A stretch of 64,000 nucleotides of DNA from a virus, in IMG/VR virus record IMGVR_UViG_3300009703_002802, one strand, 5' to 3'. The notes below the pieces were generated by a model that saw nothing but the letters and a program-made list of their open reading frames with translations, ran no database searches and was not told the origin of the DNA. Both the position numbers and the translations under genes were made by a program. Shown here piece by piece: positions 4,579 to 33,920 of this stretch. The number at the start of each line of letters is the position of its first letter. Position 1 is the first letter of the stretch.

Positions 4579-5005
4579 TTATGAAGTAGAGGTTGTTGAA
4601 TACTGCGATTACGTAGAAATCAACCACGTTTACAGATATGACGAAATAGACGAGAGAGTGGTCTGCTACATGAAGCAGGCCATTTTCTGGTCTTTTAGAG
4701 AAGAAGTTTTACTGCCAGTAATGGACTCGCAAGGCAAGCCGACTGACGAATATAGAATGACTTCTGACTTTGTAGTGCGAGACTATGTTGTATTAAAGAT
4801 GGGCTGGAGTAACAAACAAAATACAACATGGAATTTTATTAATGGAAAGTGGCATTTCACTTTTTATGATATGAATAGCGATACTTACTTACGAATCATA
4901 TGTAATAGCATAAAGACGAGCCACACAGACTATGATGTTGAACGTAGAAATCTTAAGCTAATAAAAAAAGAACATAGACACGAATTTATGGAGCGAAGAG
5001 AATGA
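4523..5005 (+). CDS. Putative secreted hypothetical protein
   Basis: In-frame ATG at 4523 gives signal-like MAVIVFVLTHAIALSA, then EINHVYRYD...QAIFWSF; start uncertain. Confidence 0.6.
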   Translation: MAVIVFVLTHAIALSAPDNYEVEVVEYCDYVEINHVYRYDEIDERVVCYMKQAIFWSFREEVLLPVMDSQGKPTDEYRMTSDFVVRDYVVLKMGWSNKQNTTWNFINGKWHFTFYDMNSDTYLRIICNSIKTSHTDYDVERRNLKLIKKEHRHEFMERRE

Positions 5006-5385: not shown

Positions 5386-6627
5386 ATGAACTGGCAAGAC
5401 CTACACAATCAATCTTTAATATTCGATTGGCATAATCACGGAACTCTCAAGAACTTTTTATTTGACCGTTCTCTTGACGGTAAAGAGTCTAGGTTCTTAA
5501 CTAGATTATTCAAAAGAGCTTTTTGGCCTCTGAGCGAAAGGAACACGCTCCCAAAGATGGAAGAAGGAGGTTTAGATGTGGTTCTGTCCACATCTTATAT
5601 ACCTGAGATAGAGTGGGTAGACGACCAAAAGCTCATCAAATTTCTAAAGTGGATCTACCCTTCCGTAAACAAAAGAGTTTTTCAACCCACTTACTTTGAC
5701 GCGACCAACGCCATGATGGATCGCATGGAAAAAGAAGTGAATGATTACAACAAAATTTCTCTATCAGATAGAAAATTCAAATTCGCAAAAAACATAAAAG
5801 AGCTTGAACAAGTTGTGGCTGATGGAAATATAGCAATGATTCACTCTGTAGAGGGAGGTCACTCTTTAAATGGAGAGTTGGCTAAAAAAAGAGTTGATGA
5901 ATCTACAGCACTAAAACCTTTGGTAAGAGATGAGATCCTAAAAAACTTAGAACATTTTTATGACAGAGGCGTGGCATATCTCACACTAGCACACTTTTAT
6001 CCAAATCACTTGGTTAGTCCTGTATTTCCATATCCAGAATACGGCATTAAAAGCAGCAATTGGAAAAACCTAATGGCTGGCTGGGATATGAATAAGGGAC
6101 TAACATCAACAGGCAAAAAGGTGGTGCAAGCTATGAAAGAAATGGGTATGATTATAGACATAACCCATTGCACGCCTAAAGCTAGACAAGAAGTCTATGA
6201 GATAGTTGGTAACGATCTATCTAAGGTTATTGCCAGTCATATCGGTGCTTATGCCGTCAATCCAGACCCACTAAACTTAGAAGACTGGGAAATAAAATGG
6301 ATGGCAGATCATAATTGCCTGATAGGTATTATCTTTATGAATTATTGGCTAAGTCCAATAGATTCAGGTTTAGGATTAAAACATATAGAACGTACAATGG
6401 ATCACATAATAAATATAGCTGGAGATAAAGTTCTTTCGATAGGAACTGACTTCGACGGCTTTACAGATCCTCCAGATGAAATCACAGACATATCAGAGCT
6501 ACCTAGACTAACTAGGTATTTAAAATGTCTAAAGTCATCTATAAACGAAGACAAGTATAGTGATAATACAATCACAAATATTTTAGGCAGAAATTCGCTA
6601 AGATTCTTACTAGAAGGTTGGAAATAA
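5386..6627 (+). CDS. Membrane dipeptidase / peptidase M19 family
   Basis: DWHNH, HSVEGG, YLTLAH, GLTSTGKKVVQAMKEMGMIIDITH, ASH and GTDFDG motifs. Confidence 0.9.
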   Translation: MNWQDLHNQSLIFDWHNHGTLKNFLFDRSLDGKESRFLTRLFKRAFWPLSERNTLPKMEEGGLDVVLSTSYIPEIEWVDDQKLIKFLKWIYPSVNKRVFQPTYFDATNAMMDRMEKEVNDYNKISLSDRKFKFAKNIKELEQVVADGNIAMIHSVEGGHSLNGELAKKRVDESTALKPLVRDEILKNLEHFYDRGVAYLTLAHFYPNHLVSPVFPYPEYGIKSSNWKNLMAGWDMNKGLTSTGKKVVQAMKEMGMIIDITHCTPKARQEVYEIVGNDLSKVIASHIGAYAVNPDPLNLEDWEIKWMADHNCLIGIIFMNYWLSPIDSGLGLKHIERTMDHIINIAGDKVLSIGTDFDGFTDPPDEITDISELPRLTRYLKCLKSSINEDKYSDNTITNILGRNSLRFLLEGWK

Positions 6628-7073
6628 TGTTTAAAGAAAACGAATACACAGAAGCAATGAAGCAGTATGCTGATGATGCTACTATTAGTGACCCAAAGAC
6701 GGGTGCTTGCTGGGAAGGTTATGAAAGAGTACCAAATACAAAAAAGGGATCTCCCGGAAGCTGTAGAAAAAAAGGTACTAAAGGATCTGCCGAAGACTGG
6801 GACGAAGAGTGGACAGAGTACTCTGAAGCCGCTGAATATCAAGGAAGAAAAGTTACACTAAATAAGCCGTTTCTTACTCCTGACGGACCAAAGAAGCGTT
6901 CTGTTTATGTAAAAAATGATAAGGGCAACGTAGTTAAAGTAAACTTCGGAGATCCCAATATGAAAATTAAAAAAAATGATCCAGCAAGACGCAAGAGTTT
7001 TAGGTCAAGACACAACTGCGACAATCCGGGTCCTAAATGGAAAGCAAGATACTGGTCTTGTAAAGCTTGGTAG
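6627..7073 (+). CDS. Modular basic phage protein (CWxGY module plus KVTLNKPF...RKSFRSRHNC...YWSC domain)
   Basis: TAATG coupling gives start 6627; both modules resemble widespread phage domains of unknown function. Confidence 0.75.
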   Translation: MFKENEYTEAMKQYADDATISDPKTGACWEGYERVPNTKKGSPGSCRKKGTKGSAEDWDEEWTEYSEAAEYQGRKVTLNKPFLTPDGPKKRSVYVKNDKGNVVKVNFGDPNMKIKKNDPARRKSFRSRHNCDNPGPKWKARYWSCKAW

Positions 7074-7081
7074 GGTTAAAA

Positions 7082-7252
7082 ATGTTTAAAAAAAATAAAT
7101 ACATAGAAGCTCTAAGACTTAATACCGAAGGTCGTATAAAATATGAATACGAACACCCAAGGACTGGGGAAGTATTCTTGTATTCAAGGAAGGGTCCTCA
7201 TAAAAAGGGTGGAGTTACATTAATTTATAAGGGTAAAGCAAAAAATGGCTAG
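7082..7252 (+). CDS. Small basic hypothetical protein
   Basis: ATG at 7082; N-terminus resembles that of the preceding gene. Confidence 0.6.
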   Translation: MFKKNKYIEALRLNTEGRIKYEYEHPRTGEVFLYSRKGPHKKGGVTLIYKGKAKNG

Positions 7253-12066: not shown

Positions 12067-14268
12067 ATGTCTGTTCGAGAACTTTCTGATTATACTTTTG
12101 TAGCAAAATATGCAAGATGGATACCGGAAAAGAAAAGAAGAGAAACTTGGGAAGAAGCTGTTAGCCGAGTAAAAGAAATGATGCTTGACAAGTATTTCGA
12201 CAAGCCAGAAATACATGAAGACATTGAGTGGGCTTATGAGATGATGCGAAAGAAGCGCGTTCTTGGATCTCAAAGAGCCTTACAGTTTGGTGGAAAACCA
12301 ATCTTTAAACACAACGCAAGAATCTATAACTGCATCACCTCTTTTTGTGATCGACTGCGTTTCTTTCAAGAATGTATGTATCTTTTATTGTGCGGTTGTG
12401 GTACTGGGTTTTCTGTGCAGAGACATCACGTAGAAAAACTACCACCCCTAGTCAGAAATAAAAGTGGCACTAAAAAGTTTGTCATACCAGATACCATTGA
12501 AGGATGGTCAGACGCTGTTGGCGTTTTGGTGGCTAGCTATTTTGATCAAGATGAACTGTTTCCAGAATACGTAGGCAAAAGCGTAAACTTTGATTACTCT
12601 GAAATTAGACCAGCTGGATCTTTCTTAAACTCTAGCGGCGGTAAAGCTCCCGGCCCAGAACCCCTAAAAAACGCCCTGTCTAGCATTAGAAAAATTTTAG
12701 ACAAGGCACTTAAAGAGTTAGAGTTCTGTGACAAGTCAATAAGAGATCTCACTCCAATTCAAGCTTACGACATAGTTATGCATAGTGCTGACGCTGTTAT
12801 TTCTGGCGGCGTTCGTAGAAGTGCTACTATATGTTTATTTAGCGCAGATGATGAGGAGATGGCAAAAGCTAAGACCGGATCTTGGTTTGTGGAGAACCCA
12901 CAAAGAGGACGTTCTAATAATTCAGCATTATTACTAAGAGATAAAACAACAGCCGAGCAGTTTTCAAAACTGATGAAGTCAGTACAAGAGTTTGGAGAAC
13001 CCGGTTTTGTATGGTCTGACTCTACCGAGTTAATAGTTAATCCATGTGTTGAGATTGGAATGTGGCCTGTGGACGAAACAACCGGCAAAAGCGGTTGGCA
13101 GGCTTGCAACCTAAGCACAATTAACTGCGCTAAGATAAAAACAGAGGAAGACTTCCTTGAAGCCTGTAAAGCCGCTTCTATAATCGGTTCTCTTCAGGCT
13201 GGGTTTGCAAGATTCCCCTATCTCGGCAAGACAAGCGAGAATATTGTTAGTAGAGAAGCACTACTCGGCGTTTCCATGACAGGTATAATGGAGAAGCATG
13301 AGATATGCTTAGATCCTGACACGCAGAAACAAGGGGCTAAAGTAGTTAAAGATGAAAACAAAAGAGTCGCTAAGATCATTGGAACCAATCAAGCCGCTAG
13401 AACTACTTGTATTAAGCCTGAAGGTACTAGCAGTTGTGTTCTTGGTACTTCCTCTGGTATCCATCCGCATCATGCTAAGCGTTATATACGAAGGGTTCAA
13501 GCGAATAAGATGGAACCCATTTACAACTACTTTAGAGAAGTAAACCCAAGAGCCTGTGAAGAGTCCGTATGGTCTAACAATGATAGCGATGATGTAGTTG
13601 CATTTTGCGTAGAAGTTCCTGCGGGGTCTAAGACTAAGAATCAAGTTGGCGCTATAGATCTCCTAACACATGTAAAAAGCACACAGCAAAGCTGGGTAAT
13701 TCCCGGCACTAATAAATCCCTGTGTACCAAGCCTTGGCTTGTACACAATGTTTCTAATACGATTAATGTAAAACCAGATGAATGGGAAGAAGTAGAAAAG
13801 TTTATTTATAAAAACAGGAAATACTTCTGTGGTATATCTTTGTTGCCAATTACTGGAGACAAGGACTATCCCCAAGCGCCATTCACCGCAATCTACCTAC
13901 CAACAGAACAGGTTCGTCACTACGGAGACGCATCTTTGTTTGTCAGCGGACTTATAGAGGTCGCTCTCAACTTATGGGAAGACAATCTATGGTCGGCCTG
14001 CGATTCACTTCTAGGTGTCGGAGCTAAGATAAAAGGCAATGGCAAAAAAGAGTGGTCTGACAGATGTAAGAAGTTTGCGGATAGATATTTTGAAGGAGAC
14101 CTAAGAAAGCTTACCTATTGCATGAAAGATGTCTACAACTGGAAAGAGTGGGTAGACTTAAATAGGGAGTTTACTAAGGTTGACTATACGGAAGTTATAG
14201 AGGAAGAAAACAACGTCAAACCTGAACAGGAATGGGCTTGCGCTGGCGGAAAGTGTGATATTATTTAG
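12067..14268 (+). CDS. nrdJ: Class II (adenosylcobalamin-dependent) ribonucleotide reductase, monomeric RTPR-like
   Basis: YNC, GTGFS, GGVRRSA, NPCVEI, ACNL, TCIKPEGT and C-terminal CAGGKC; no beta subunit adjacent. Confidence 0.85.
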   Translation: MSVRELSDYTFVAKYARWIPEKKRRETWEEAVSRVKEMMLDKYFDKPEIHEDIEWAYEMMRKKRVLGSQRALQFGGKPIFKHNARIYNCITSFCDRLRFFQECMYLLLCGCGTGFSVQRHHVEKLPPLVRNKSGTKKFVIPDTIEGWSDAVGVLVASYFDQDELFPEYVGKSVNFDYSEIRPAGSFLNSSGGKAPGPEPLKNALSSIRKILDKALKELEFCDKSIRDLTPIQAYDIVMHSADAVISGGVRRSATICLFSADDEEMAKAKTGSWFVENPQRGRSNNSALLLRDKTTAEQFSKLMKSVQEFGEPGFVWSDSTELIVNPCVEIGMWPVDETTGKSGWQACNLSTINCAKIKTEEDFLEACKAASIIGSLQAGFARFPYLGKTSENIVSREALLGVSMTGIMEKHEICLDPDTQKQGAKVVKDENKRVAKIIGTNQAARTTCIKPEGTSSCVLGTSSGIHPHHAKRYIRRVQANKMEPIYNYFREVNPRACEESVWSNNDSDDVVAFCVEVPAGSKTKNQVGAIDLLTHVKSTQQSWVIPGTNKSLCTKPWLVHNVSNTINVKPDEWEEVEKFIYKNRKYFCGISLLPITGDKDYPQAPFTAIYLPTEQVRHYGDASLFVSGLIEVALNLWEDNLWSACDSLLGVGAKIKGNGKKEWSDRCKKFADRYFEGDLRKLTYCMKDVYNWKEWVDLNREFTKVDYTEVIEEENNVKPEQEWACAGGKCDII

Positions 14269-14276
14269 GACTAAAA

Positions 14277-14708
14277 ATGACTAATTATAATTTTTTTGAG
14301 ACCAAAAAACTCTACGAATCAGCAAAGAGTCCCACCAAAGGTCATCTAGATGATGCTGGTTGGGACTTGTACGCTTTTGAAACTGTCAGCATACCGGCGG
14401 GAGCCACTGTTTTAGCTTCCACAGGCATTGCAATAGCCATACCTAAAGGTCACTCAGGGTTAATCTGGGATAGATCTTCTATGGGTGTTAAAGGTGTTCA
14501 TAGACATGCTGGCGTTATAGACTGTGGATATAGAGGCGAAGTAAAAGTTTGTCTGCACAATACCACAAAAGAACCATTCCATGTAGAAAAAGGTGATAGA
14601 ATAGCTCAGCTTATCATACAGGAAGTTCCACATTTTGTACAGCACGTAGTAGAAGAATTAGACTCTACAGACAGGGGTTCCGGAGGCTTTGGCTCTACAG
14701 GTAAATAA
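14277..14708 (+). CDS. dut: Trimeric dUTPase
   Basis: DAGWDL, RSSMG, GVIDCGYRGE, DRIAQL, RGSGGFGSTG. Confidence 0.95.
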   Translation: MTNYNFFETKKLYESAKSPTKGHLDDAGWDLYAFETVSIPAGATVLASTGIAIAIPKGHSGLIWDRSSMGVKGVHRHAGVIDCGYRGEVKVCLHNTTKEPFHVEKGDRIAQLIIQEVPHFVQHVVEELDSTDRGSGGFGSTGK

Positions 14709-22444: not shown

Positions 22445-23234
22445 AATAATTGGATTCTCTGGAGCAAAGCAAAGCGGTAAAACCACATCAACAAACTTCC
22501 TTTACGGATATCAACTTAGAGTTAATGATGTAATTGAGAAGTTTATGATGAACCAAGACACTGGCGAACTTCTTGTTAATACAGTGACGATTAACGAGAA
22601 AGGCGAAGAAGAAGAAGGTTTGGGTATTCTCGACATCGAGAGAAGAGATCCTGAATTTGTAGAATACGCAGCACAAGAAATTTGGCCTCATGTGAGATCG
22701 TTTAGTTTTGCCGACCCTCTCAAGATAATAGCGGTACAACTATTCGGTTTGTCAGAAGAGCAGTGTTTCGGCACGGACGAAGATAAAAACTCACTTACTA
22801 ATATTAGAATTCAAGATATGTCTAGGTTAATTTCTGGCCCAGACCAAACCGAACTTGTGAAGATACCAGCAGCAGAAGCTCATCTTACAGCAAGAGAATT
22901 TTTACAATATTTTGGAACAGACATATGCAGAAGACTTAAATCGGACATATGGGTTCGCAGTTGTGTGAACAGAATAAAACAAAGTGGAACTGATCTAGCC
23001 ATTGTTCCAGATATACGTTTCCCAAACGAAGTTAAGGCTATACGCAAAGCTGGAGGCAAAGTCATAAGACTGACAAGAAAGCCTCACGAAGATAGTCACG
23101 ACAGTGAAACAGCTTTAGATGGCTTTAAGAAATTTGATCATGTTATCGACAATCAAAACATGACGATTGATGAAACTAATAGAGCATTGTTAGAGGTTAT
23201 AAAGGAATGGGGATGGATAACTCCAAAGGCTTAA
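22437..23234 (+). CDS. Deoxynucleoside monophosphate kinase
   Basis: GAKQSGKT, SFADPLK, REFLQYFGTDICR, PDIRFPNE. Confidence 0.88.
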   Translation: MSRIIGFSGAKQSGKTTSTNFLYGYQLRVNDVIEKFMMNQDTGELLVNTVTINEKGEEEEGLGILDIERRDPEFVEYAAQEIWPHVRSFSFADPLKIIAVQLFGLSEEQCFGTDEDKNSLTNIRIQDMSRLISGPDQTELVKIPAAEAHLTAREFLQYFGTDICRRLKSDIWVRSCVNRIKQSGTDLAIVPDIRFPNEVKAIRKAGGKVIRLTRKPHEDSHDSETALDGFKKFDHVIDNQNMTIDETNRALLEVIKEWGWITPKA

Positions 23235-23770
23235 TCGTAGAAATTCCGTTTACACAGGATATGGTCAACTCTGCTAAAGCTAAGGCTAAGCAGATGGGAT
23301 CAATTAAGAATTCAATACTCAAGGGTAAAGGTAACTTTGCTGGATTTCTTGGGGAAGAAGCCGTCGCTGCGTACATCAGTGCGGACATTATTAGTTTTGA
23401 AGAGGGAGATGCCAAATACGGGCATGATATCCTCAAAAATGACAGAAGGATTGAAGTAAAGACTAAAAGGCGCACAGTCGCTCCAAAGCCTTTCTATGAC
23501 GTTTCAGTCGCTGCTACAAGCAAGCACCAAGCGGACAAGAGAGGATTAGATCTTTACATTTTTGCAAGCATACAGTTTGATGGTCATACGCCAAAGAGGA
23601 TATGGATCATCGGACAAAAAGACAGGGATCAATATTTCAAACAGGCTAGGTTTATCAAAAAAGGAGAGAGTGAAGGCAACAATGGTTTTCGCGCTCATAC
23701 TGATATGTACAATTTGATAACTACAGAATTAGATGGTTTAGATGATAGTTTGCTACCACAGAAGCAGTAG
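23213..23770 (+). CDS. Restriction-endonuclease-like PD-(D/E)xK protein
   Basis: GFLGEEAV...HDILKNDRRIEVKTK. Confidence 0.55.
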   Translation: MDNSKGLIVEIPFTQDMVNSAKAKAKQMGSIKNSILKGKGNFAGFLGEEAVAAYISADIISFEEGDAKYGHDILKNDRRIEVKTKRRTVAPKPFYDVSVAATSKHQADKRGLDLYIFASIQFDGHTPKRIWIIGQKDRDQYFKQARFIKKGESEGNNGFRAHTDMYNLITTELDGLDDSLLPQKQ

Positions 23771-24761
23771 TTTAGGAACTCTGGAGTTCTGCGAACAAAA
23801 GTATTTTCTCCAGTACAATCTATCCTACAAGGACAAGACGAACAAAAAAGCTCTCATGGGTACTATTACCCATAAGGTGATGCAGATACTTGGAGACAAG
23901 TCACTGGCTATCATCAAAGGTGAAGACAAGGTCGTTGATGACGAACTTGGTACTTTTACGCTGGAGCAGTGTGACGACCTATCGCATGTGAATGACTTAG
24001 CTTTTGATTACTACGCTAGTAGTTTTCCAGAAGTCGTTATCACGGATACTGAAAAACGAACCTGTCTAAAATGGGCTGAGAAAGCTGTGGCCTATCAGGA
24101 CGGAATGTTTGATCCTAGAAATCAAGATGTATTTGCGACAGAGCTTTTCTTCGACATTGAAATACAGGAAAACTGGGCAAAGTACAACTACAGGGTAGGT
24201 AAAGAAAATGTCAAAGGTAACTTAGCTATAAAGGGAACCGTTGACTTAATCGTAAAACAGGGCGAAAACTATTACGAGATACTAGATTATAAAACCGGCA
24301 AAAGAATTAACTGGGCTACTGGAGAAGAGAAAACTTTAGAGAAGCTGCAAAAAGACACTCAGCTCCTCCTGTATTACTACGCCCTAAAAAACATGTACCC
24401 AGAAGCAGAGTTTTCTGTAAGCATTTTTTATATTAACGCTGGTGGTGTTTTCTCAATGGTCTTTGACGAAGACGACTACAAAAAAGCAGAAAACATATTG
24501 AGACAAAAATTTGAGAAAATTAAGAGAAGTCAAAATCCAAAGCTCTTATCTAATGAAAACTCACATTGGAAGTGCCAGAAACTTTGTAAGTTTAGTCAGC
24601 CTTACAAAGAAGGTTCAAAGAAAAGTGTGTGTCAACATATTAGAGACGAGGTAAGAAAAGACGGAATCTTAAAAGTTGTTGAAAAATACGGAGATGTCAA
24701 CAAGCTGTCAGCATACGGAGATGGCGGCGGTAGACTCGCAGAAGATACTAAGAAAAAATGA
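23742..24761 (+). CDS. Cas4/RecB-like PD-(D/E)xK exonuclease
   Basis: SSSLGTLEFCEQKYF, GTVDL, ILDYKTG, QLLLYY, CQKLC...C. Confidence 0.85.
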   Translation: MIVCYHRSSSLGTLEFCEQKYFLQYNLSYKDKTNKKALMGTITHKVMQILGDKSLAIIKGEDKVVDDELGTFTLEQCDDLSHVNDLAFDYYASSFPEVVITDTEKRTCLKWAEKAVAYQDGMFDPRNQDVFATELFFDIEIQENWAKYNYRVGKENVKGNLAIKGTVDLIVKQGENYYEILDYKTGKRINWATGEEKTLEKLQKDTQLLLYYYALKNMYPEAEFSVSIFYINAGGVFSMVFDEDDYKKAENILRQKFEKIKRSQNPKLLSNENSHWKCQKLCKFSQPYKEGSKKSVCQHIRDEVRKDGILKVVEKYGDVNKLSAYGDGGGRLAEDTKKK

Positions 24762-26665
24762 ATTGGACTCCATTACATTTACACAGTCACTACAGCCTAC
24801 TTGATGGCCTGTCTAGGCCGCAACAGATCGCAAGCAGGTGTGCAGACTTGGGATTTAGCTCTTGCGCACTGACAGATCACGGAACCGTGTCTGGAGCTGT
24901 CTCTTTCACTAAGGCTTGTAAAGCAAAAAATATCAAACCTGTGTTAGGCTGTGAGTTCTATCTCAGTCAAGACGACGCAACGGTAAAAGAAACATCAAAC
25001 AGAACCCTGAGTCATCTTGTAGTGCTGGCAAAGAACAAGACTGGCTGGGGAAAATTGATCGAGGCTGTATCTCGCAGTAACGATGAAGATGTTTATTATT
25101 ACAAGCCGCGATTAGACTTAGATTTGCTCGGTCAATATGCTAACGGAGACCTTTTGGCTTTTAGTGGGCATTTAGGCAGCGACATGGCTAACGCGATTTT
25201 TACAGACTATAAAGCTGCGTATGGTCAAGAAACAGAGGCTGGAGTTAAGAAGTATATAGACCCAAGCTGGGTTGAGAAAGTCACAAAAGTCGCATACAAA
25301 TATATGGATATATTTGGTAAAGAAAACTTTCTAATCGAAGTGCAGTGTATAGACCAAGATAACTCTCCAGCAGCAAAGCTTGTAGCGCAAGGGATGCGCT
25401 ATATCGCTAAAACATTAAAGATACCCTCGATAGCGACCTCAGACTCACACTATCCAGAAAAGAAGGATTCACCAGACCACCTACTACTTTTGTGTTCTGC
25501 GATGAAAACAACTCTTAGAAAGATAAAAAGCAAGTTAGATAACAATGAGGACGTTGGCTTCTCTGGGTTTATGAAGTCTAACAACTTCCACATCCCAACT
25601 TTACAAGAGATGAAGGCAATACATACAGAAGCTGAATTGCAGAATACCATGCATGTGGCCGACATGTGTGAAAGCTATGACATTCTTGGTCAGCCAATGT
25701 TGCCTAAGTTTAAATGCCCAGAAGACATGGCGGAAGAGGCTTACCTAAAACATTTATGCAGAGAGGGATGGAAAAATTTCCTCATGCCAAGTGGTAAGAT
25801 AAACACAAAAACATCTGAAGATATATATGCCGACAGAATAAAAAAAGAACTTAAAGTCATAAGTGATGCAAACCTGTCTGGATACTTTCTGATAGTAAGA
25901 GATATAGTTAACAACATTAGATCAAACTCTTGGATTCCCGGACCCGGAAGAGGTTCTGCTGCTGGATGTTTGGTTTCTTATTTGGTGGGCATAACACAAG
26001 TTGATCCCATTGAGTATGGATTAATCTTTGAAAGATTTTATAACGCCGGAAGAAATACAGAAGATCACATATCACTTCCAGATATTGATATAGACGTACC
26101 GGCATCTAGAAGAGACGATACCATAAACTACATAAGAGATAAGTATGGACATTCAAAAGTAAGTCAAATGGTTACATTTGGGAGACTTCAAGGGCGAAGC
26201 GCACTCAAAGAAGTTCTACGCATGAATGAGGCTTGCGGCTATGACGAAATGAACGTCATAACAAAAAGCCTACCACCCGAACATGAAATATCTGATCAAT
26301 TAGCGGATATGGACGACCCGTCAGTAATACGATGGACTTTGATAAATCAGCCGGAAGTCCTAAGAGAGTATTGCAGAATGAATGACGAGGGCGAATTAGA
26401 AGGCGATTATGCAAAACTGTTTGAACAAGCCATGCGCATCGAAGGTACATTTAAGTCTCAGGGTAAACACGCAGCTGGAGTTGTAATTTCCTCCAATAAT
26501 TTGAACGAGGTATGCCCTATGGTTAGAGACAAATCTAGCTCAGAAAAAATGGCTGGTATGGAAATGAACGATCTTGAGGCTATGGGTCATGTCAAATTTG
26601 ACGTTTTAGGTATTTCACTTTTAGATAAAGTGATGGGTATTAGAGACCAACTGGAAGAATCTTAA
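24758..26665 (+). CDS. dnaE: DNA polymerase III alpha, N-terminal half (PHP + palm)
   Basis: HLHSHYSLLDG, TDHG, GPGRGSAAG, PDIDID, GKHAAG, KFDVLG. Confidence 0.93.
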   Translation: MNWTPLHLHSHYSLLDGLSRPQQIASRCADLGFSSCALTDHGTVSGAVSFTKACKAKNIKPVLGCEFYLSQDDATVKETSNRTLSHLVVLAKNKTGWGKLIEAVSRSNDEDVYYYKPRLDLDLLGQYANGDLLAFSGHLGSDMANAIFTDYKAAYGQETEAGVKKYIDPSWVEKVTKVAYKYMDIFGKENFLIEVQCIDQDNSPAAKLVAQGMRYIAKTLKIPSIATSDSHYPEKKDSPDHLLLLCSAMKTTLRKIKSKLDNNEDVGFSGFMKSNNFHIPTLQEMKAIHTEAELQNTMHVADMCESYDILGQPMLPKFKCPEDMAEEAYLKHLCREGWKNFLMPSGKINTKTSEDIYADRIKKELKVISDANLSGYFLIVRDIVNNIRSNSWIPGPGRGSAAGCLVSYLVGITQVDPIEYGLIFERFYNAGRNTEDHISLPDIDIDVPASRRDDTINYIRDKYGHSKVSQMVTFGRLQGRSALKEVLRMNEACGYDEMNVITKSLPPEHEISDQLADMDDPSVIRWTLINQPEVLREYCRMNDEGELEGDYAKLFEQAMRIEGTFKSQGKHAAGVVISSNNLNEVCPMVRDKSSSEKMAGMEMNDLEAMGHVKFDVLGISLLDKVMGIRDQLEES

Positions 26666-26666
26666 T

Positions 26667-26918
26667 ATGAATAGAGAATTTATAAAAAACAGAATTGAGA
26701 ACAAAAGATACGTTGAGTTCAAATCTCTGTCTATATGCAAAATAAATGATTTTTATGACAGAATGGTAGAAAAGGACATGTATCAGGTTCACTGTTCCAA
26801 CCCTAGATGTTTGCATGAAAAAGAATCTAACTCAAAGAAAATTCCGTTCAGTATGCTTTACGCAGACATTGAACAAGCAATAAATAAATTTGTTGAATTA
26901 AGGAAAAAGATAAGATGA
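26667..26918 (+). CDS. Hypothetical protein
   Basis: 83-aa ORF between dnaE-N and the exonuclease, coupled to the latter. Confidence 0.6.
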   Translation: MNREFIKNRIENKRYVEFKSLSICKINDFYDRMVEKDMYQVHCSNPRCLHEKESNSKKIPFSMLYADIEQAINKFVELRKKIR

Positions 26919-27598
26919 ATTATAGAGATATCATTGTGTTCGACTTTGAAACGGGCGGTAGAAACCCGTATAAGTGTCAGCCAACACAAATTGCCGCAGT
27001 TGCTATTCATGGGCGCAAGCTCACTGTGCAGCCCGGAGGTTATTTTAATAGTGAAATACGGCCTATTTTAGATGACGATAAGGCTATTGAGCTAGGTTTA
27101 GATCCAGTAGAGGACGAAGCTCTCGCCGTCACTAGAAAGAATAGAGAAGATTTAGCAAAAGCACCGCAGCCAAAAGCGGTTTGGCAAAAGTTCACAAACT
27201 TTGTCAATAAGTACAACTTCAAAAAAACAAACTACTACGCTCCTATCGCCGCTGGTTACAACATAATTGGTTTTGACATGCCTATCGTTGAACGTATGTG
27301 CCAACAATATGGCCCTACGCACAACAAGTCAGGTAGACAGGGCTTGTTTAATCCTATTCACAAAGTTGACTTGATGCATACGGTGTGGATGTGGATGGAG
27401 AATAACTCAGATGTTAAATCCTTGAGCATGGATTCAATGAGAGACCTGCTTGGTATGGACAAAGAAAATGCTCATGACGCACTACAGGACGTAAAAGATA
27501 CTGCCAATTTGTTGATTGCTTTCATGAAGCTTATCAGAAGAGTTTCTCCTAGCGTAAAATTTGAAAAGGCATTTGCAGATGGAAACATCCACCTTTGA
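26915..27598 (+). CDS. DEDDh 3'-5' exonuclease (DnaQ/epsilon-like)
   Basis: VFDFETGG, GYNIIGFD, HDALQD. Confidence 0.88.
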   Translation: MNYRDIIVFDFETGGRNPYKCQPTQIAAVAIHGRKLTVQPGGYFNSEIRPILDDDKAIELGLDPVEDEALAVTRKNREDLAKAPQPKAVWQKFTNFVNKYNFKKTNYYAPIAAGYNIIGFDMPIVERMCQQYGPTHNKSGRQGLFNPIHKVDLMHTVWMWMENNSDVKSLSMDSMRDLLGMDKENAHDALQDVKDTANLLIAFMKLIRRVSPSVKFEKAFADGNIHL

Positions 27599-29150
27599 TC
27601 CTATAAATTTATCTTTTGACGACGACTCTACATGGGACACAATCTGTAGCGGAAGAACGAAGGGTGTTTTTCAGTTAGAGAGTAGTTTAGGAAGAAGTTG
27701 GGCTAAAAAAGTTAAGCCCAAAAATATGGAAGAACTTTCCGACTTAATAGCCATCATCCGTCCGGGATGTCTAAAAGCTATAGTTGATGGAAAGTCTATG
27801 ACTCAACATTACGTCGATAGGAAGAGTGGCGAAGAGTCAATAACATATTTGCACCAATCATTAGAGCCAATCCTAAAGAAGACTCAGGGTGTACTCGTTT
27901 ATCAAGAGCAGTCAATGCAGATAGCTCAACAGTTAGCTGGATTTAGCCTTGAGGACGCTGACGACCTCCGTAAAGCCATCGGCAAAAAGAAGGCGGATCT
28001 GATGGCTAAAGTTAAAAAGTCTTTTATGTCAGGGGCTATTAAGCAAGGGACTGTGGACGAAGAAACAGCAGAGGAAATTTTTAGCTGGATTGAAAAGTCT
28101 AGTCGTTACGCTTTTAATAAATCTCACGCTGTTAGCTATGCTATTTGTGGATATTGGAGCGCATACGCTAAAACGCATTATCCGCTACAGTTCTACTGTA
28201 ACTATCTTAGATATTCTGGCGGAAAGCCAGACCCGCAGAAAGAAGTCAAGGAGCTTGTCACGGACGCTAAGTCCAACGATATATTCATACATCCTCCGTC
28301 CTTAGATTATTTGAACGAAGAGACTGACGTAATAAACGATACAATCTACTTTGGACTCAAAAACGTCAAGTCTCTAGGGTCTAACACAATAACAACAATA
28401 AGAGATAGTATTTCTGATCTAAAGGAATCTTTAAAATCACAGGAGTGGACTTGGTATGAATTTTTAGTCCTCATTTCTAGGAAGATAAATAAAACGGCAA
28501 CCAGAGCTTTAATATCCTCTGGAGTTTTGTCCAACCTTAAAGTTTCAAGACAAAAGATGCTTTATGAATTCGACACGTTTGAAAAGTTATCCAACAAAGA
28601 AATAGAATGGGCTTTAGAAAATTATCAAGCCTTTGACTCATTACTAGAACTTCTTAGAAGTCTAGGCAAGCCGAGAAAAGAGGGTGGTGGGGTTACAAAC
28701 AAGAATAGGCTGGAGATAGTAAAAGATTTGATACAGCAGCTAGAAGATCCTCCAGTCTCTCTACACGACGATCCAGAATGGATAGTTAGAACGGAAGAAA
28801 ATTATTACGGCGTGTCACTGACTTTCTCCAAAGTAGAGTCATCAGATACTAGCAGGGCTGATACCACTTGTAAAGATCTCATTAATGGTAAAGAGGGCAA
28901 GGTTATGATTGCCGCAACAGTTTCTGAAACGAGAAGGTACACACCAAAAAAGGGTAAGGCCGCTGGCAATGAAATGGGGTTTTTAGAAATAGAAGATGCT
29001 ACTGGTAGCGTTGATAATATAACTCTTTTTAATGAAGCTTGGATTAAATACAAAAATGTTCTATATAATGGAAACAATGTACTTATAATAGGAAAATCAT
29101 CCAAGGGTAAAAGAGACGGAGTTATAGTAGACGAAATATTTGAACTGTAG
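27579..29150 (+). CDS. dnaE: DNA polymerase III alpha, C-terminal half (fingers, HhH, OB fold)
   Basis: GVFQLES, IIRPG, VYQEQSMQ, LRKAIGKK, YAFNKSHA, MGFLEIEDATG; probable start ATG 27579. Confidence 0.92.
   Translation: METSTFDPINLSFDDDSTWDTICSGRTKGVFQLESSLGRSWAKKVKPKNMEELSDLIAIIRPGCLKAIVDGKSMTQHYVDRKSGEESITYLHQSLEPILKKTQGVLVYQEQSMQIAQQLAGFSLEDADDLRKAIGKKKADLMAKVKKSFMSGAIKQGTVDEETAEEIFSWIEKSSRYAFNKSHAVSYAICGYWSAYAKTHYPLQFYCNYLRYSGGKPDPQKEVKELVTDAKSNDIFIHPPSLDYLNEETDVINDTIYFGLKNVKSLGSNTITTIRDSISDLKESLKSQEWTWYEFLVLISRKINKTATRALISSGVLSNLKVSRQKMLYEFDTFEKLSNKEIEWALENYQAFDSLLELLRSLGKPRKEGGGVTNKNRLEIVKDLIQQLEDPPVSLHDDPEWIVRTEENYYGVSLTFSKVESSDTSRADTTCKDLINGKEGKVMIAATVSETRRYTPKKGKAAGNEMGFLEIEDATGSVDNITLFNEAWIKYKNVLYNGNNVLIIGKSSKGKRDGVIVDEIFEL
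28203..28238 (+). repeat. 36-nt cassette, copy A (YLRYSGGKPDPQ) inside dnaE C-half
   Basis: 33/36 identical to 32615-32650. Confidence 0.95.
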
Positions 29151-29179
29151 TTGCAAAAGCTCTTTAATCAGCGTATATT
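29151..29179 (+). promoter_or_regulatory. Sigma70-like promoter TTGCAA-N17-TATATT
   Basis: Canonical 17-nt spacing in the gap between the dnaE-C stop and ssb. Confidence 0.6.
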
Positions 29180-29216
29180 GTATGTAGTAAGAACAACTTA
29201 TTGCAAGGATGGTACT

Positions 29217-29633
29217 ATGAACACTATTTCAAATTATTGCCGATTTATTGGTCGTTTGACTGAAGACCCACATCTTATCAAAGTAGACAAAACAGAGTTA
29301 TGTCGATTTACTTTGGCCGTAACTGAATACAGGCGAGAAAAAAGCCATGACGGAGAAAGTAAGAAAAAGAAGAGCGTAAATTACTTTGACTTTGAAGCTT
29401 GGGACACTGGAGCGACAACTCTTGGTAAATATTGCAAAAAGGGTGACATAGTAGATGTAGTGACCTCAGCTAGAAATAATAACTGGACAGACAAAGAAGG
29501 AAACAAAAAGTTTCAGACAAGATTTAGAGTCAAAGAGTTTAAACTTTTTAACACAAATCAAAATACGTCTAGCGTTTCGGATGGGGCGAGCAATGAAAGT
29601 AAGCTCGAAAAATCCGAACTAGTAAATGAATAA
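29217..29633 (+). CDS. ssb: Single-stranded DNA-binding protein
   Basis: IGRLTEDP, RFTLAV, YFDFEAW, YCKKGDIV; start reassigned to ATG 29217. Confidence 0.88.
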   Translation: MNTISNYCRFIGRLTEDPHLIKVDKTELCRFTLAVTEYRREKSHDGESKKKKSVNYFDFEAWDTGATTLGKYCKKGDIVDVVTSARNNNWTDKEGNKKFQTRFRVKEFKLFNTNQNTSSVSDGASNESKLEKSELVNE

Positions 29634-30123
29634 AGAAGAAAGAAGCACAACGGACAAAGAGCTTGAAGACCAACTGATTCGTAATAATTACGGACTGGTT
29701 GTTAGTCAAGCTCTTTCTTTTTTATCTAGAAACTCTAGCTTAGACGAATTTATACAGGCTGGACTGATAGGTCTGCTTAGAGCTATAAGACAACATGATG
29801 AAAACATAGCTAAGTTTTCTACTTATGCTACTGTATGTATTAGAAATGAGATACAAAAATTAAAAAGCAAAAATAAAGATAAAGATGTTAAAGTATTCTT
29901 TGATAACAATCTTTTAGCAAAAAGTCTAAAAGATAAGTACTATATAAAAGAAAGCTTCTTTGATTATGTGCCGGATTATCTATCAGAAGAAGAGAACTTT
30001 ATACTCAAGTTAAAACTTGAAAATTATACCAACGCAGAGATTTGCGATTTTCTAAATTGCACCAGAGTTGTTTTGAATAAAAAATTAGAAACACTCTTTG
30101 AAAAAATTAGGGAAGCTAATTGA
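29626..30123 (+). CDS. Sigma-70 family sigma factor (second copy)
   Basis: QAGLIGLLRAIRQHD...KFSTYATVCIRNEI; LSEEENFIL...YTNAEIC. Confidence 0.82.
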   Translation: MNKEERSTTDKELEDQLIRNNYGLVVSQALSFLSRNSSLDEFIQAGLIGLLRAIRQHDENIAKFSTYATVCIRNEIQKLKSKNKDKDVKVFFDNNLLAKSLKDKYYIKESFFDYVPDYLSEEENFILKLKLENYTNAEICDFLNCTRVVLNKKLETLFEKIREAN

Positions 30124-31760
30124 TGAGAAAGAAAAGAATATTATTTTGCGGAGAGGCTACCTATCTAAATACAGGCTATGCAACCTATGGCAGAGAAGTT
30201 TTAAACAGACTTTATCAGACAGATAAGTACGAATTGGCAGAATTTGCTAGTTATGGAACTCCAGAAGAGGCCGCAAAGAACAATATTCCGTGGACTTTTT
30301 ATCCAAACATGCCTGACACTTCTAACAAAGCTGAAGTAGATCAGTACAACTCCATCCCTACAAACCAATTTGGAGAGTGGAGATTTGAAGAAGTATTACT
30401 TAGCTTTAAGCCTGATATTGTTTTTGATATTCGAGACTTTTGGATGCTTGACTATCAAAGCAGGTCGCCATTCAGAAGGATGTTCCATTGGGTTATAATG
30501 CCTACCGTAGATGCTTCCCCACAAAACGAACAATGGCTGGCTACATTTTCTGAAGCTGACGGCGTTTTTAATTATTCTGATTGGGGATATGAGGTTCTAA
30601 AAGAAGAGTCTAACGGCGCTATTAATTGTTTGGGTAGCGCTCCTCCTTCTGCCGATCAAGCCTACCAGCCAGTAGCAAGCAAAAGAAAGCACAAATCCGA
30701 ATTAGGGTTTGACCCAGACAGTAAAATAATTGGCACTGTAATGCGCAATCAAAGAAGGAAGTTATTTCCTGACTTGTTTGAAGCTTTTAGAAAGTTTTTA
30801 GACAAGAGTGGTAGTAGTGATGTTTTTCTATACTGTCACACTAGCTATCCAGACATTGGATGGGACATACCTAAACTACTAAATAAACACGCACTGTCAA
30901 GCAAGGTTATCTTCACATATGTATGCCCAAGTTGTGGTCATGCTTTCCCATCGTTTTTTGCTGACGCAAAAACAAAATGCCCAAGATGCGGTGGTTCTGG
31001 AGCTGGCTTATCAAGCGTAAAGAATGGAACGAGCTATGAATTCCTTGCTTCTATCATGAATACGTTTGACCTATACGTTCAGTATGCAAACAGTGAAGGT
31101 TTCGGTTTGCCACAGGTTGAAGCAGCCGCTTGTGGAGTGCCTGTCATGAGCATTGATTACTCTGCCATGAGTAGTGTTGTTAGAAAATTGGGAGGAATAC
31201 CATTAAAGCCAAAAGCTCTTTACAACGAAATGGAAACTGGCTGTGACAGGGCAGTACCTGACAACGACAAGACTGCGGAGGAGATGAAAAAGTTCTTCGA
31301 CATGTCAGATAAAGATCGTCAATTTTTAGGAAAGCTTTGCAAGGCGAACTTTGATAAATACTACCAATGGGATTCAACCGCTAAGAAATGGGAGCAGTAT
31401 TTTGATTCTTTAGAAATTAGACCCGATCAAGAAACTTGGCTGTCACCACCCAGAATACACCACCCAGATATAGATGTTCCTGCTTACCTTCCTACACAAG
31501 AGTATGCTCAATGGCTGATAGTCAATGTTTTAGGAGAGCCTGAAAGACTTAACACTTACTTTGAAGCAAGAATGATTAGAGATCTAAATTATGGGATGTA
31601 CATAGAAGGCACTGGAGAGATGTACTTTAATGAGGACTCTTATAAGTTTGTTCGTCCAGAGTATCAACCGTTTGACAAAGAAATTGCATACAAGGTTGTC
31701 GCTGATCTTGCAGAGAGAAGAAATTTCTGGGAATCAAAAAGGAAAGAGGTGGTTAGATGA
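30123..31760 (+). CDS. GT-B (GT4-like) glycosyltransferase
   Basis: RNQRRKLFP, EGFGLPQVEAAACGVP. Confidence 0.88.
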   Translation: MRKKRILFCGEATYLNTGYATYGREVLNRLYQTDKYELAEFASYGTPEEAAKNNIPWTFYPNMPDTSNKAEVDQYNSIPTNQFGEWRFEEVLLSFKPDIVFDIRDFWMLDYQSRSPFRRMFHWVIMPTVDASPQNEQWLATFSEADGVFNYSDWGYEVLKEESNGAINCLGSAPPSADQAYQPVASKRKHKSELGFDPDSKIIGTVMRNQRRKLFPDLFEAFRKFLDKSGSSDVFLYCHTSYPDIGWDIPKLLNKHALSSKVIFTYVCPSCGHAFPSFFADAKTKCPRCGGSGAGLSSVKNGTSYEFLASIMNTFDLYVQYANSEGFGLPQVEAAACGVPVMSIDYSAMSSVVRKLGGIPLKPKALYNEMETGCDRAVPDNDKTAEEMKKFFDMSDKDRQFLGKLCKANFDKYYQWDSTAKKWEQYFDSLEIRPDQETWLSPPRIHHPDIDVPAYLPTQEYAQWLIVNVLGEPERLNTYFEARMIRDLNYGMYIEGTGEMYFNEDSYKFVRPEYQPFDKEIAYKVVADLAERRNFWESKRKEVVR

Positions 31761-32911
31761 AAGTCCTCTATATAGGTTGCTACAGAGATGGTACTGGATG
31801 GGCGCAAGCCGCAATAGATTACATACTTTCTATGGACGCTGCTGGAATAGACGTTGTTCCAAGGCCAATAAAATTAAATAACAACAAACCAGACATACCT
31901 AAAAGAATAATTGAGCTTGAGAAAAAAGATAGTATCGGCAGTGATGTTTGCATACAGCACGTACTTCCACACATGATGGATTACAATGCTAGATTTAAGA
32001 AAAATATAGCCCTATACGCAAGCGAGACAAGCAATTTTAAGGCATCTAACTGGGCTAGAAAAATAAACTGTTTAGATGAGGCTTGGGTTATAAACAACCA
32101 AATGGTGAACGCCGCAAAAGAAAGCGGGGTAAACATACCAATAAAGGTTGTTCCTCATGCCACAGATTTTTCTAAGTTTGAAAGCAATCATAGAAAAGTT
32201 GATATACCAAACATAAGAGACACCTTTACTTTCTACTTTGTTGGCGAGATGAACAACAGAAAGAACATGGCGGCTTTTATAAGAGCGTTTCATCTAGAGT
32301 TTGACCCAGACGAACCCGTCTCGATTTTAATAAAATCAAACAGGTATGGTATGTCTTCCGACGAGTGCGCGGCAGAGATAAAAAATGTATGCGATAAAAT
32401 TAAGACATCTCTTAAAAAGTACGCAAATCTAGAAGACTATAGAGAAGACTTAATAGTTACAGATTATTTAGGCGAACAAGAGCTTTATGGTCTTCACAGG
32501 GCTTGTGACTGCTTCGTTATGCCTAGCTACGGAGAGGCTTGGTCTATACCAGCTTTTGACGCTATGGGCTTTGGTAAAACGCCGATATGTTCAAATACTG
32601 GAGGAATGGCAGATTATATTAGATATTCTGGGGGAAAACCAGACCCGCAGGGCGACTCTGGAATTTTGATTGACGGCAGATGGGAACCAGTTTCTGGAAT
32701 GACAGACACCTTTGCCGATCTTTTTACAGGCGAAGAGGATTGGTATTCTGTAGATGTAAATCAGCTTAGAAGAGCAATGAGAAAAATATACACTATGAAA
32801 AGCTCAGAACAAGAAGAATACAGCAAGATGAAAAGAAACGGACTTGTTCAAGCGCAGAAATATTCTCACGAAAATATAGGCAAATTAATAAAAGAGCTTT
32901 TGAATGAGTAA
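31757..32911 (+). CDS. GT-B (GT4-like) glycosyltransferase
   Basis: RKN, CDCFVMPSYGEAWSIPAFDAMGFG; carries the shared cassette. Confidence 0.88.
   Translation: MKVLYIGCYRDGTGWAQAAIDYILSMDAAGIDVVPRPIKLNNNKPDIPKRIIELEKKDSIGSDVCIQHVLPHMMDYNARFKKNIALYASETSNFKASNWARKINCLDEAWVINNQMVNAAKESGVNIPIKVVPHATDFSKFESNHRKVDIPNIRDTFTFYFVGEMNNRKNMAAFIRAFHLEFDPDEPVSILIKSNRYGMSSDECAAEIKNVCDKIKTSLKKYANLEDYREDLIVTDYLGEQELYGLHRACDCFVMPSYGEAWSIPAFDAMGFGKTPICSNTGGMADYIRYSGGKPDPQGDSGILIDGRWEPVSGMTDTFADLFTGEEDWYSVDVNQLRRAMRKIYTMKSSEQEEYSKMKRNGLVQAQKYSHENIGKLIKELLNE
32615..32650 (+). repeat. 36-nt cassette, copy B (YIRYSGGKPDPQ) inside glycosyltransferase
   Basis: 33/36 identical to 28203-28238, in the same reading register. 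Confidence 0.95.
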
Positions 32912-33920
32912 TCCAGTAGCATCTATAACAAGAGCAGCGACCAGAAAATTTAATGAGCCGCTAAATATACTGACCTTCCCCACACACGAAAGATATGAAA
33001 GTCTTTTGTGCAGGACAGGCCATAATTTTTATGCCTACAGAGCCGAAGGCGTAAAAGACTGGAACTCTAACTACGCTCCTCTACCAGAGAACTACCAACT
33101 GCTAGACCCAGATCTTGGCGAGTCACAAATACCACTGAATGTAGATTTTGATCTTATTCTCTCTCAAAACAAGTTCGGTCAATTTCAAATCGCAGAACCT
33201 TTATCAAAAAGACTGCACTTACCGATGGTTAGTTTAGAGCATACATTGCCAGTTCCTTACTGGCCTCCAAATGTAAAAGAGTCTACAAAATACATGAGAG
33301 GCGATACAAATATATTTATATCAGAATACAGCATACACGACTGGGACTGGAGTCCGCAGGGGAATGACACAGCAGTAATAACGCACGGAGTAGACTCGCA
33401 GACTTTTAAGCCGCAGGAAGTAGAGAGAGAAAACCAAATACTATCCGTTGTTAATGACTGGATTAATAGAGATTGGTGTTGCGGGTTCACTTTATGGCAA
33501 AGAGTTATTCAGGGCTTACCATTTAAGGTTGTTGGAGATACTCCCGGCCTGTCAGTCCCAGCATCCAGCACAGAAGAATTAGTAAACGCATACTCTTCCA
33601 ATAGAATTTTTCTAAACACTTCTACAATATCTCCCGTACCAACAGCCTTGCTGGAAGCCATGTCTTGTGGTTGCGCTGTTGTTACGACAGCGACATGTAT
33701 GATACCGGAGATTGTAGAAAATGGCGTTAACGGTTTTATAAGTAATGACGAAGAAGAGCTAAAGCAATACTTAGTTGACCTCTTGAATGACGAAGAGCTT
33801 GCTAAAAAGCTAGGCGAAAACGCAAGAAAAACCATAGTCGAAAACTTTTCACAAGAAGAGTTTATTAGGAAGTGGGACTTTTTACTTAAACAAACTGCTA
33901 AAAAGTTTTTTAGGGGATAA
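32904..33920 (+). CDS. GT-B (GT4-like) glycosyltransferase
   Basis: FLNTSTISPVPTALLEAMSCG, ENGVNG. Confidence 0.88.
   Translation: MSNPVASITRAATRKFNEPLNILTFPTHERYESLLCRTGHNFYAYRAEGVKDWNSNYAPLPENYQLLDPDLGESQIPLNVDFDLILSQNKFGQFQIAEPLSKRLHLPMVSLEHTLPVPYWPPNVKESTKYMRGDTNIFISEYSIHDWDWSPQGNDTAVITHGVDSQTFKPQEVERENQILSVVNDWINRDWCCGFTLWQRVIQGLPFKVVGDTPGLSVPASSTEELVNAYSSNRIFLNTSTISPVPTALLEAMSCGCAVVTTATCMIPEIVENGVNGFISNDEEELKQYLVDLLNDEELAKKLGENARKTIVENFSQEEFIRKWDFLLKQTAKKFFRG

Follow-up and report, generated by a model that had tools for sequence, protein, structure and literature searches.

Probable templated insertion of a short DnaE tract into a glycosyltransferase gene of an uncultured marine phage

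Templated insertions are known at double-strand breaks in yeast (PMC11724301), and the best-studied ones, of the MMBIR type, are inverted and have their template within ~100 bp (PMC8421209). A literature search on templated insertions returned general papers, none of them on phages. The sequence described here, a short tract of the replicase gene dnaE found again within a glycosyltransferase (GT) gene of a phage, resembles such insertions (PMC8421209, PMC11724301) in its length of tens of bases, an identifiable template elsewhere, an intact donor and some, though weak, microhomology at one junction, and in that a single event would have given an insertion polymorphism. Indeed, it has the marks of a templated insertion: a near-identical template, a derived state, an intact donor and presence in the contigs of several sequencing runs. 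It differs from the MMBIR type (PMC8421209), however, in that the copy is direct, with a template 4.4 kb distant or in the genome of a co-infecting phage (the strict definition, an inverted copy within ~100 bp, does not describe it), that the right junction lacks microhomology, and that the phage has a DnaE-type replicase.

As in short linear motifs (for example, the clamp-binding QL[SD]LF tails), two non-homologous proteins of one genome have an identical short peptide. Where a motif is truly shared, the orthologues of each protein conserve it, and the resemblance is one of peptides, not of nucleotides. In contrast, the copy in the GT is confined to this strain and agrees with a DnaE allele even at synonymous sites, and of the two carriers only DnaE shows conservation of the peptide in its orthologues. 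Short-patch ectopic gene conversion likewise moves sequence non-reciprocally between loci of one genome, but dnaE and the GT gene are unrelated and had no prior homologous tract (4-5 of 6 bases match at the edge), and the event would have inserted new sequence rather than converted a paralogous tract. With diversity-generating retroelements (DGRs; PMC3240598) the locus shares a one-way copying, within a phage, from a template repeat to the coding sequence of a second gene; it differs in that the GT tract is only 30 bases long, that the recipient site had no earlier repeat, and that this site is a loop and not a C-terminal variable region. We considered and rejected a DGR target: the differences between the copies are C>G and G>A, not adenine-specific. 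No reverse transcriptase domain was found among the ORFs scanned (23.7-36.7 kb).

The window, by which we mean the whole 64 kb stretch of DNA that was analysed (the window allele being the sequence as read in that stretch), contains the following features:

24758..26665, + strand: N-terminal half of DnaE, PHP domain and polymerase core (Pfam PHP, DNA_pol3_alpha), given as context
27561..29150, + strand: C-terminal half of DnaE (Pol III alpha) with fingers, HhH and OB domains, the putative donor gene (Pfam DNA_pol3_finger, 6.9e-48; HHH_6; OB; aligns to residues 645-946 of Taq Pol III alpha)
28203..28208, + strand: TATCTT (Tyr-Leu), immediately 5′ of the probable template, with microhomology to TATAT(A/T) of the GT gene
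28209..28238, + strand: native DnaE segment coding for RYSGGKPDPQ, the probable template of the copy (conserved in 41 related loci)
28216..28708, + strand: block of ~7% divergence between the window and the otherwise ~99% identical sister contig L044, starting within the template segment
31757..32911, + strand: GT4-type GT-B glycosyltransferase, the putative recipient, middle of three consecutive GT genes (Pfam Glycos_transf_1, 5.3e-14; PHROG 2170; AF2 model; Foldseek)
32615..32620, + strand: TATATT (Tyr-Ile), native GT codons at the left junction (from orthologue comparison)
32621..32650, + strand: probable templated insertion of 30 bases (10 codons, RYSGGKPDPQ), derived and strain-specific (from its absence in orthologues and its match to DnaE)

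Re-reading of the sequence upheld the observation from which the analysis started, that two 36-mers (28203-28238 and 32615-32650) are identical at 33 of 36 bases, in matching codon phase and between unrelated flanks. The first begins 642 bases (214 codons) into the ORF of the DnaE C-half and the second 858 bases (286 codons) into the GT ORF, both in frame; Pfam matches (DNA_pol3_finger and HHH_6 against Glycos_transf_1) agree with the two host genes originally named. The copies are in direct orientation and 4412 bases (~4.4 kb) separate the template from the GT copy, which lies downstream. A degenerate search allowing ≤3 mismatches found two copies only within the 64 kb window, a repeat search returned the pair as the sole 36-nt direct repeat of the window at 92% identity, and none of 100 dinucleotide-preserving shuffles of the window gave two matches. 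The repeat is real and non-random.

Comparison with relatives shows that the peptide is native to the C-terminal half of DnaE and conserved in the family. All 41 related IMG/VR loci, whose identity spans 37-95%, have a YL..(S/A).GKPDPQ-like sequence at the same position of DnaE. The segment follows the AYAKTHYP helix, the last helix of the fingers, and aligns to a short inter-helix stretch at about residues 845-853 of Taq Pol III alpha. The ORF of the DnaE C-half is uninterrupted, and gap-free against orthologues at the template site, indicating a copy and not a cut-and-paste event. Bases 27561-33000, compared as nucleotides with the genomes of isolate phages, gave no match, and a protein search with the N-terminal half of DnaE gave only matches of ≤34% identity and no cultured relative.

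RYSGGKPDPQ is, by contrast, missing from the GT in 41 of 41 orthologues, whose identity ranges between 97% and 34%, including the closest (L003/G001; 94% nucleotide and 97% amino acid identity). The GT segment, which to the original prediction had looked like an insertion, is thus derived and, among the compared loci, unique to the window strain; the alignment of orthologues proposed there as a check makes DnaE the native carrier. The GT is otherwise under purifying selection, with 31 synonymous and 3 non-synonymous codon differences from L003. When the window was compared with the 93-kb relative G001, which has the DnaE copy alone and no second one, the RYSGGKPDPQ insertion was the only indel with an ectopic template in the window; none of the remaining window/G001 indels, checked against the window, had one.

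Assignment of the recipient to GT4/GT-B rests on a PF00534 score of 52.5 bits (cut-off 26.4), and its best Foldseek matches are 3oy2, MshA, GlgM and HepE (E 1e-12 to 1e-17). The point of entry of the insertion is flanked by the Ile codon that follows the GG-M-A-D motif and by the next Gly codon. In the AlphaFold (AF2) model of the GT (pLDDT 93.2), the sole low block (residues 291-300; pLDDT 64) corresponds to the insert and forms a loop from helix 282-289 to strand 303-305; the Pfam and PHROG alignments of the GT break off at residue 289. The model thus predicts the insert to be a 10-residue extension of a surface loop. The placements first proposed are right: in DnaE the segment comes behind the AYAKTHYP helix, and in the GT it occupies the loop following GG-x-x-D.

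The first six bases of the GT copy (TATATT, Tyr-Ile) are native to the GT, because orthologues carry D-Y/F-I/L there. The copied tract therefore comes to 30 bases (32621-32650), or 31 counting the T at 32620, which may come from the donor since the nearest insertion-free alleles have TATATA at this place. Of the three differences initially counted between the copies, the two synonymous ones are present, but the Leu/Ile difference is consequently not a substitution inside the copy.

The insert matches the DnaE of the window at 28 of 30 bases and the DnaE allele of the sister strain L044 at 30 of 30. The window has GGC and AAG (at 28220 and 28226) and L044 has GGG and AAA; the DnaE of the metagenome contig X13 shares both L044 variants (28220 G, 28226 A). 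At the four cassette positions where the DnaE of L003 differs from that of the window, the insert agrees with the window/L044 lineage. These matches identify the template as, in all likelihood, a DnaE allele with GGG and AAA, as in L044 and X13. An exact 30-mer scan of viral contigs matched the L044 DnaE allele only, and one of metagenome contigs gave no match. Since the two synonymous differences preexist in the sister DnaE allele, they are uninformative on selection. Accordingly, of the earlier proposal of a short copy event kept at the peptide level, the copy event is supported (native in DnaE, derived in the GT) but the retention at the peptide level is not.

The strains are visibly mosaic in the comparison of the window, L044 and L003. 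Identity between the window and L044 is ~99% as far as 28215, and from 28220 the two diverge by ~7%; the last 493 bases hold 35 differences and the 5000 before them 59. The donor segment is able to fold into a hairpin (TCTGGC/GCCAGA, 5-nt loop, -5.9 kcal/mol), not significant against shuffles (z -1.5), nor was folding of the GT context (z -1.9). The switch in divergence between the window and L044 starts inside this hairpin-forming segment.

Both alleles of the GT were found in seawater metagenomes, on the evidence of assembled contigs and sampled words. Contigs of runs X1, X3 and X4 carry the insertion with 0 differences and at the depth of the flanks, the X1 contig (26 kb) spanning both copies, and run X2 contains all sampled words of the insertion allele. 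These four runs, dated 2017, 2019 and 2024, belong to four studies, and since all four were flagged as possible sources of the window, not all are independent. From run X13, a contig of 3860 nt (depth 52) that covers the 734 bases of 32267-33000 shows 2 SNPs there and lacks exactly 30 bases, aligned as 29 missing at 32620 and 1 at 32650. The insertion-free allele is the commoner one (15 runs versus 4); in X13 this state is contig-based and in the other 14 of the 15 runs it is taken from word share, the 15 runs containing 0.74 of the sampled words where an insertion-free allele without other differences should give 0.76. The insertion is therefore real, varies between strains and is no product of assembly; the chimeric assembly named at the outset as grounds for dropping the prediction does not account for it.

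We consider that a single recent templated ectopic insertion of a DnaE tract into the GT gene, tolerated and probably neutral, best explains these observations, with a probability of roughly 85%; the mechanism (template switch or break repair) and the neutrality are the parts of this explanation that we infer. A tract of 30-31 bases of dnaE would have been copied directly into the GT gene with the donor kept, most likely by a growing 3′ end that briefly switched to the wrong template, either where a fork had stalled or while a break in the GT gene was being repaired by synthesis. Microhomology of the form TAT.T(T), shared by the Tyr-Leu codons in DnaE with the Tyr-Ile codons in the GT, may have primed this switch, and the return to the GT template would have used no detectable homology. 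Because this microhomology joins two Tyr-(Leu/Ile) codon pairs, the copy would take the phase of its source, and since the length of the insert is a multiple of three, the GT frame is kept. TATCTT and TATAT(A/T) match at 4-5 of 6 bases at the left junction, with 1-2 perfect bases adjoining it, and the right junction (AAAGAA versus GGCGAC) has no microhomology. With none on the right and one perfect adjoining base on the left, the classical microhomology signature is weak. Among the genes adjoining the insertion we found neither a homing endonuclease nor any other obvious candidate for making breaks. That the insertion is tolerated follows from its occurrence in runs of three different years; persistence in several runs could also mean benefit or hitch-hiking.

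As the DnaE of the window is an inexact template, an extra step is needed, either later recombination or a co-infecting donor. The ancestor of the window may have had GGG/AAA, its dnaE from ~28220 being replaced later by recombination; alternatively, the template may have been the genome of a co-infecting sister phage with GGG/AAA, the switch then being inter-molecular and no later replacement of dnaE needed. To the latter we give somewhat below even odds. Besides the perfect match of the insert to L044/X13-type DnaE, the three-way comparison with L003 as outgroup, in which GGC/AAG looks like the ancestral state and GGG/AAA like a change within the L044 lineage, is in its favour, and the mosaicism of the strains implies that co-infection and exchange occur. 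The divergence from 28220 on, however, equally fits an L044-like ancestor with a later-replaced dnaE block.

A quite different reading, that the DnaE loop is kept in the GT as an adaptive tag for shared docking, cleavage or modification, as the original prediction had offered, we regard as very unlikely. It could draw on the position of the insert, in frame, in the phase of the donor and in a modelled surface loop, on an allele unchanged across the dated runs and on the good conservation of the GKPDPQ core in DnaE of this phage group. But the peptide is absent from every GT orthologue compared and from the commoner, near-identical wild allele, an absence that the original prediction had itself listed among what would count against it; variation among donor alleles explains the synonymous differences, leaving no signal of selection on the peptide; and the Tyr-Leu/Tyr-Ile microhomology accounts for the shared phase. 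Read from the sequence, the other two phases of the insert are stop-free, so phase was not filtered by selection. The peptide matches no known motif, and its DnaE counterpart aligns to a short inter-helix stretch of the Taq enzyme. The peptide has no demonstrated common function in DnaE and the GT, and a docking tag is not supported.

There is hardly any room for the 30-base insertion being a chimera of assembly or amplification or a sequencing error. The window is probably a metagenome-assembled contig, and one related study (run X21) used whole-genome amplification; identical insertion sequence was, however, assembled independently in X1, X3 and X4, both flanks run on in the GT gene with the frame kept, and the insert differs from the DnaE of its own genome at 2 bases, which a graph mis-join would not give. 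Loss of an ancestral loop in relatives has nothing in its favour except the frequency of deletions between short repeats, and it would call for many separate and exact losses among the 41 orthologues; convergence is excluded by the 30/30 match to L044 at synonymous positions as well, as is chance by shuffles with 0 expected matches; these readings are effectively refuted. We also rejected a miniature mobile element: the 64 kb hold just two copies and the 93-kb G001 a single one, one copy is a conserved coding segment, and neither terminal repeats nor a target-site duplication was found at the copies.

For phage biology in general the finding carries little weight, and no link between glycosylation and the replisome follows from it. 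Its modest value lies in giving, from an uncultured marine phage, a clean natural case of short templated ectopic insertion: the donor allele has been identified, alleles without the insertion (ancestral) and with it (derived) both circulate in seawater metagenomes, and the graft extends a surface loop of a conserved enzyme without breaking the frame. There is also a lesson of method, in that synonymous differences mimicked conservation at the peptide level and were really preexisting variation of the donor allele. It is a long shot that the graft is non-neutral and gives the GT a new contact, for example with a replisome or host factor that the DnaE loop touches as well, or that the hairpin-forming DnaE segment is a fragile site that seeds breakpoints and ectopic donation; in the latter case the grafting of loops by template switching would repeatedly supply phages that have DnaE-type replicases with protein innovations.

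The 36-mers at 28203-28238 and 32615-32650 are 33/36 identical and each is in frame with its own ORF, as the original prediction had claimed. A degenerate search of the 64 kb allowing up to 3 mismatches returned only these two sites, and none of 100 dinucleotide-preserving shuffles of the window gave two matches. At 92% identity, no other 36-nt direct repeat occurs in the window. Three ORFs of the region are given here, the second and third assigned by Pfam:

23742-24761, exonuclease, in the neighbourhood of the pair
27561-29150, DnaE-type Pol III alpha, fingers/HhH/OB half (DnaE C-half), holding the first 36-mer
31757-32911, Glycos_transf_1 (GT4-like) glycosyltransferase (GT), the middle one of three GT genes, holding the second 36-mer

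The gene order is exonuclease, DnaE N-half, 83-aa ORF, DEDDh exonuclease, DnaE C-half, SSB, sigma-70-like factor and three GT4 genes. DnaE is split in two ORFs (24758-29150), with the 83-aa ORF and the DEDDh (RNase_T family) exonuclease in between. The three GT4-type genes are consecutive (30120-33920) with overlapping stop and start codons; the first (546 aa) has an internal zinc-ribbon match at residues 264-292 and weakly matches the GT4 family of conflict systems. The 5′ end of the sigma-factor ORF holds a 30-nt inverted repeat (29656-29716) that is near-perfect, with a 1-nt spacer and 77% complementarity. The window comes from a lineage of uncultured marine phages whose related contigs reach ~161 kb; no nucleotide match was found among isolate phage genomes, where the best DnaE protein match is 34% identical.

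A search with the GT protein gave 41 related viral contigs that keep the DnaE C-half, SSB, sigma factor and GT genes in synteny and also conserve the split DnaE arrangement, with both intervening ORFs. The cassette peptide is native to DnaE, because a homologous ungapped segment occupies its position in the DnaE C-half of every relative, at identities from 95% to 37%; closer relatives read YL(K/I/L)(H/Y)S(G/S)GKPDPQ. When DnaE is aligned to Taq Pol III alpha (2hpi), this segment falls on a short stretch at about residues 845-853, between the helix equivalent to AYAKTHYPLQF and the one that leads to the HhH region. In the GT alignment, RYSGGKPDPQ is absent from 41/41 orthologues, which pass from GGM.D(Y/F)(I/L) directly into a G/N/D-rich turn and the next strand. 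Even the GT of the near relative L003 (93-kb genome G001) lacks it, despite 94% DNA and 97% protein identity. The TATATT at 32615-32620 (Tyr-Ile codons) is native GT sequence; copying covers 32621-32650, a tract of 30 bases (10 codons).

Compared with the nearest insertion-free alleles, the GT has gained these 30 bases and an A to T change that keeps Ile (ATA to ATT). On its left side, TAT.T(T) is common to donor and recipient (Tyr-Leu versus Tyr-Ile codons); on its right side the tract has no homology (AAAGAA in the donor, GGCGAC in the recipient). The two copies share a reading phase because of this codon-level microhomology, and the GT frame is kept because the insert is 30 bases long. The other two phases of the insert are free of stop codons, and therefore the phase was not filtered by stops. 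Against the 93-kb genome, the insert is the sole indel with an ectopic template in the window, and no relative repeats its cassette elsewhere in the 9-17 kb examined per locus; on these comparisons the templated insertion is a one-off. Other strain-specific indels against that genome are at 4586-4974 (389 bases versus 59), 14268-14313 (46 versus 180) and 61105-61115 (an 11-base insertion), none with a second copy in the window. The window also has about 422 bases that this genome lacks, at 6623-7110 and edged by 33-nt repeats 85% alike (6623-6655 and 7078-7110); they resemble a tandem duplication or an additional small paralogue.

Two codons of the 30-base tract are not the same in the window's DnaE and in the GT copy, GGC against GGG and AAG against AAA. 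In IMG/VR, a pattern scan identified a sister-strain 5.5-kb contig, L044, 98.3% identical to window 23216-28708, whose DnaE has GGG and AAA and so matches the insert 30/30 (31/31 counting the preceding T). A DnaE contig of the seawater run X13 carries the same variants (28220 G and 28226 A), and the insert sides with the window/L044 lineage at four cassette positions where the DnaE of L003 differs from the window's. Together these observations show that the copying was recent and took place inside the strain complex, from a GGG/AAA DnaE allele. The earlier suggestion that the cassette was kept at the peptide level is not borne out: the synonymous differences are allelic variation of the donor, since the L044 allele already matches, and not substitutions gathered under constraint. 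The same allele sets a G_GGA_AAA heptamer (X_XXY_YYZ form) in zero frame at 32626-32632, in the GT and in L044 DnaE, probably by chance.

The window has the L003 base at both 28220 and 28226, where L044 alone departs. The data fit two histories equally. In one, an L044-like genome gained the insertion and recombination later exchanged its DnaE segment from about 28220 on; in the other, a co-infecting L044-like genome supplied the template. Between window and L044 there are 59 differences over 5000 bases upstream of position 28216 (1.2%) and 35 over the last 493 (7.1%), the divergent block opening with the two cassette positions. The jump from ~1.2% to ~7% falls at 28161-28220, and therefore a recombination breakpoint lies at or inside the template segment. 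When L003 is added to the comparison, ancestry is a patchwork all along the sequence. That the switch point falls so near the cassette may be coincidence or mark a fragile site. A hairpin, TCTGGC-GGAAA-GCCAGA, is possible at 28215-28231 and 32627-32643, with ordinary, non-significant stability (z -1.5); the variable positions form its closing pair, C-G in the window and L003 and G/A in L044, X13 and the GT insert.

Sequencing runs were scored for the share of sampled 31-mers of window 32500-32780 that they contain. All were present in four runs from four studies, labelled subsurface (two, 2017), seawater (2019) and aquatic viral (2024), each a possible source of the window and so not all independent. 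In X1 a 26-kb contig spans both cassette copies with 0 differences, and in X3 and X4 contigs cross the insertion with 0 differences at the depth of the flanks, so that an assembly or amplification artefact is rejected; X2 was scored by word share only. Fifteen further runs have a share of 0.74, against 0.76 expected for an otherwise identical insertion-free allele. In X13, the one of these whose contigs were compared, a 3860-nt contig (depth 52) covering 32267-33000 lacks exactly the 30 bases and has 2 other differences; its junction reads ATA GGC (ATA GGT in L003). These data make the insertion a genuine polymorphism, with the insertion-bearing form apparently the rarer allele.

The best-supported reading of the pair is a single templated ectopic insertion from DnaE into the GT, the copy event among the two alternatives first proposed. 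The other, a shared tag linking replisome and glycosyltransferase, is not supported, as the peptide is missing from close GT orthologues and from the commoner wild allele. Templated ectopic insertions are a known mutation class, arising from polymerase template switching or break repair synthesis (PMC8421209, PMC11724301). The present case departs from classic MMBIR in the direct orientation of the copy, in its remote template (4.4 kb off or on another genome) and in showing weak microhomology at only one junction.

An AlphaFold model of the GT built on 28 orthologues (pLDDT 93.2, pTM 0.90) has a GT-B fold, with chlorella-virus GT 3oy2, MshA, GlgM and HepE as best structural matches. Its sole weak block is residues 291-300 (mean 64), and the insert sits in an irregular stretch running from the end of the GG-M-A-D-bearing helix (282-289) to strand 303-305; alignments to GT families (Pfam, PHROG) end at residue 289. 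That the grafted DnaE loop has acquired a use in the GT is very improbable. Codon differences from L003 are 31 synonymous and 3 non-synonymous; the gene overall is under purifying selection, and the insertion is too young for inference on its own effect. Its presence in runs dated 2017, 2019 and 2024 argues that the insertion allele is at least tolerated.
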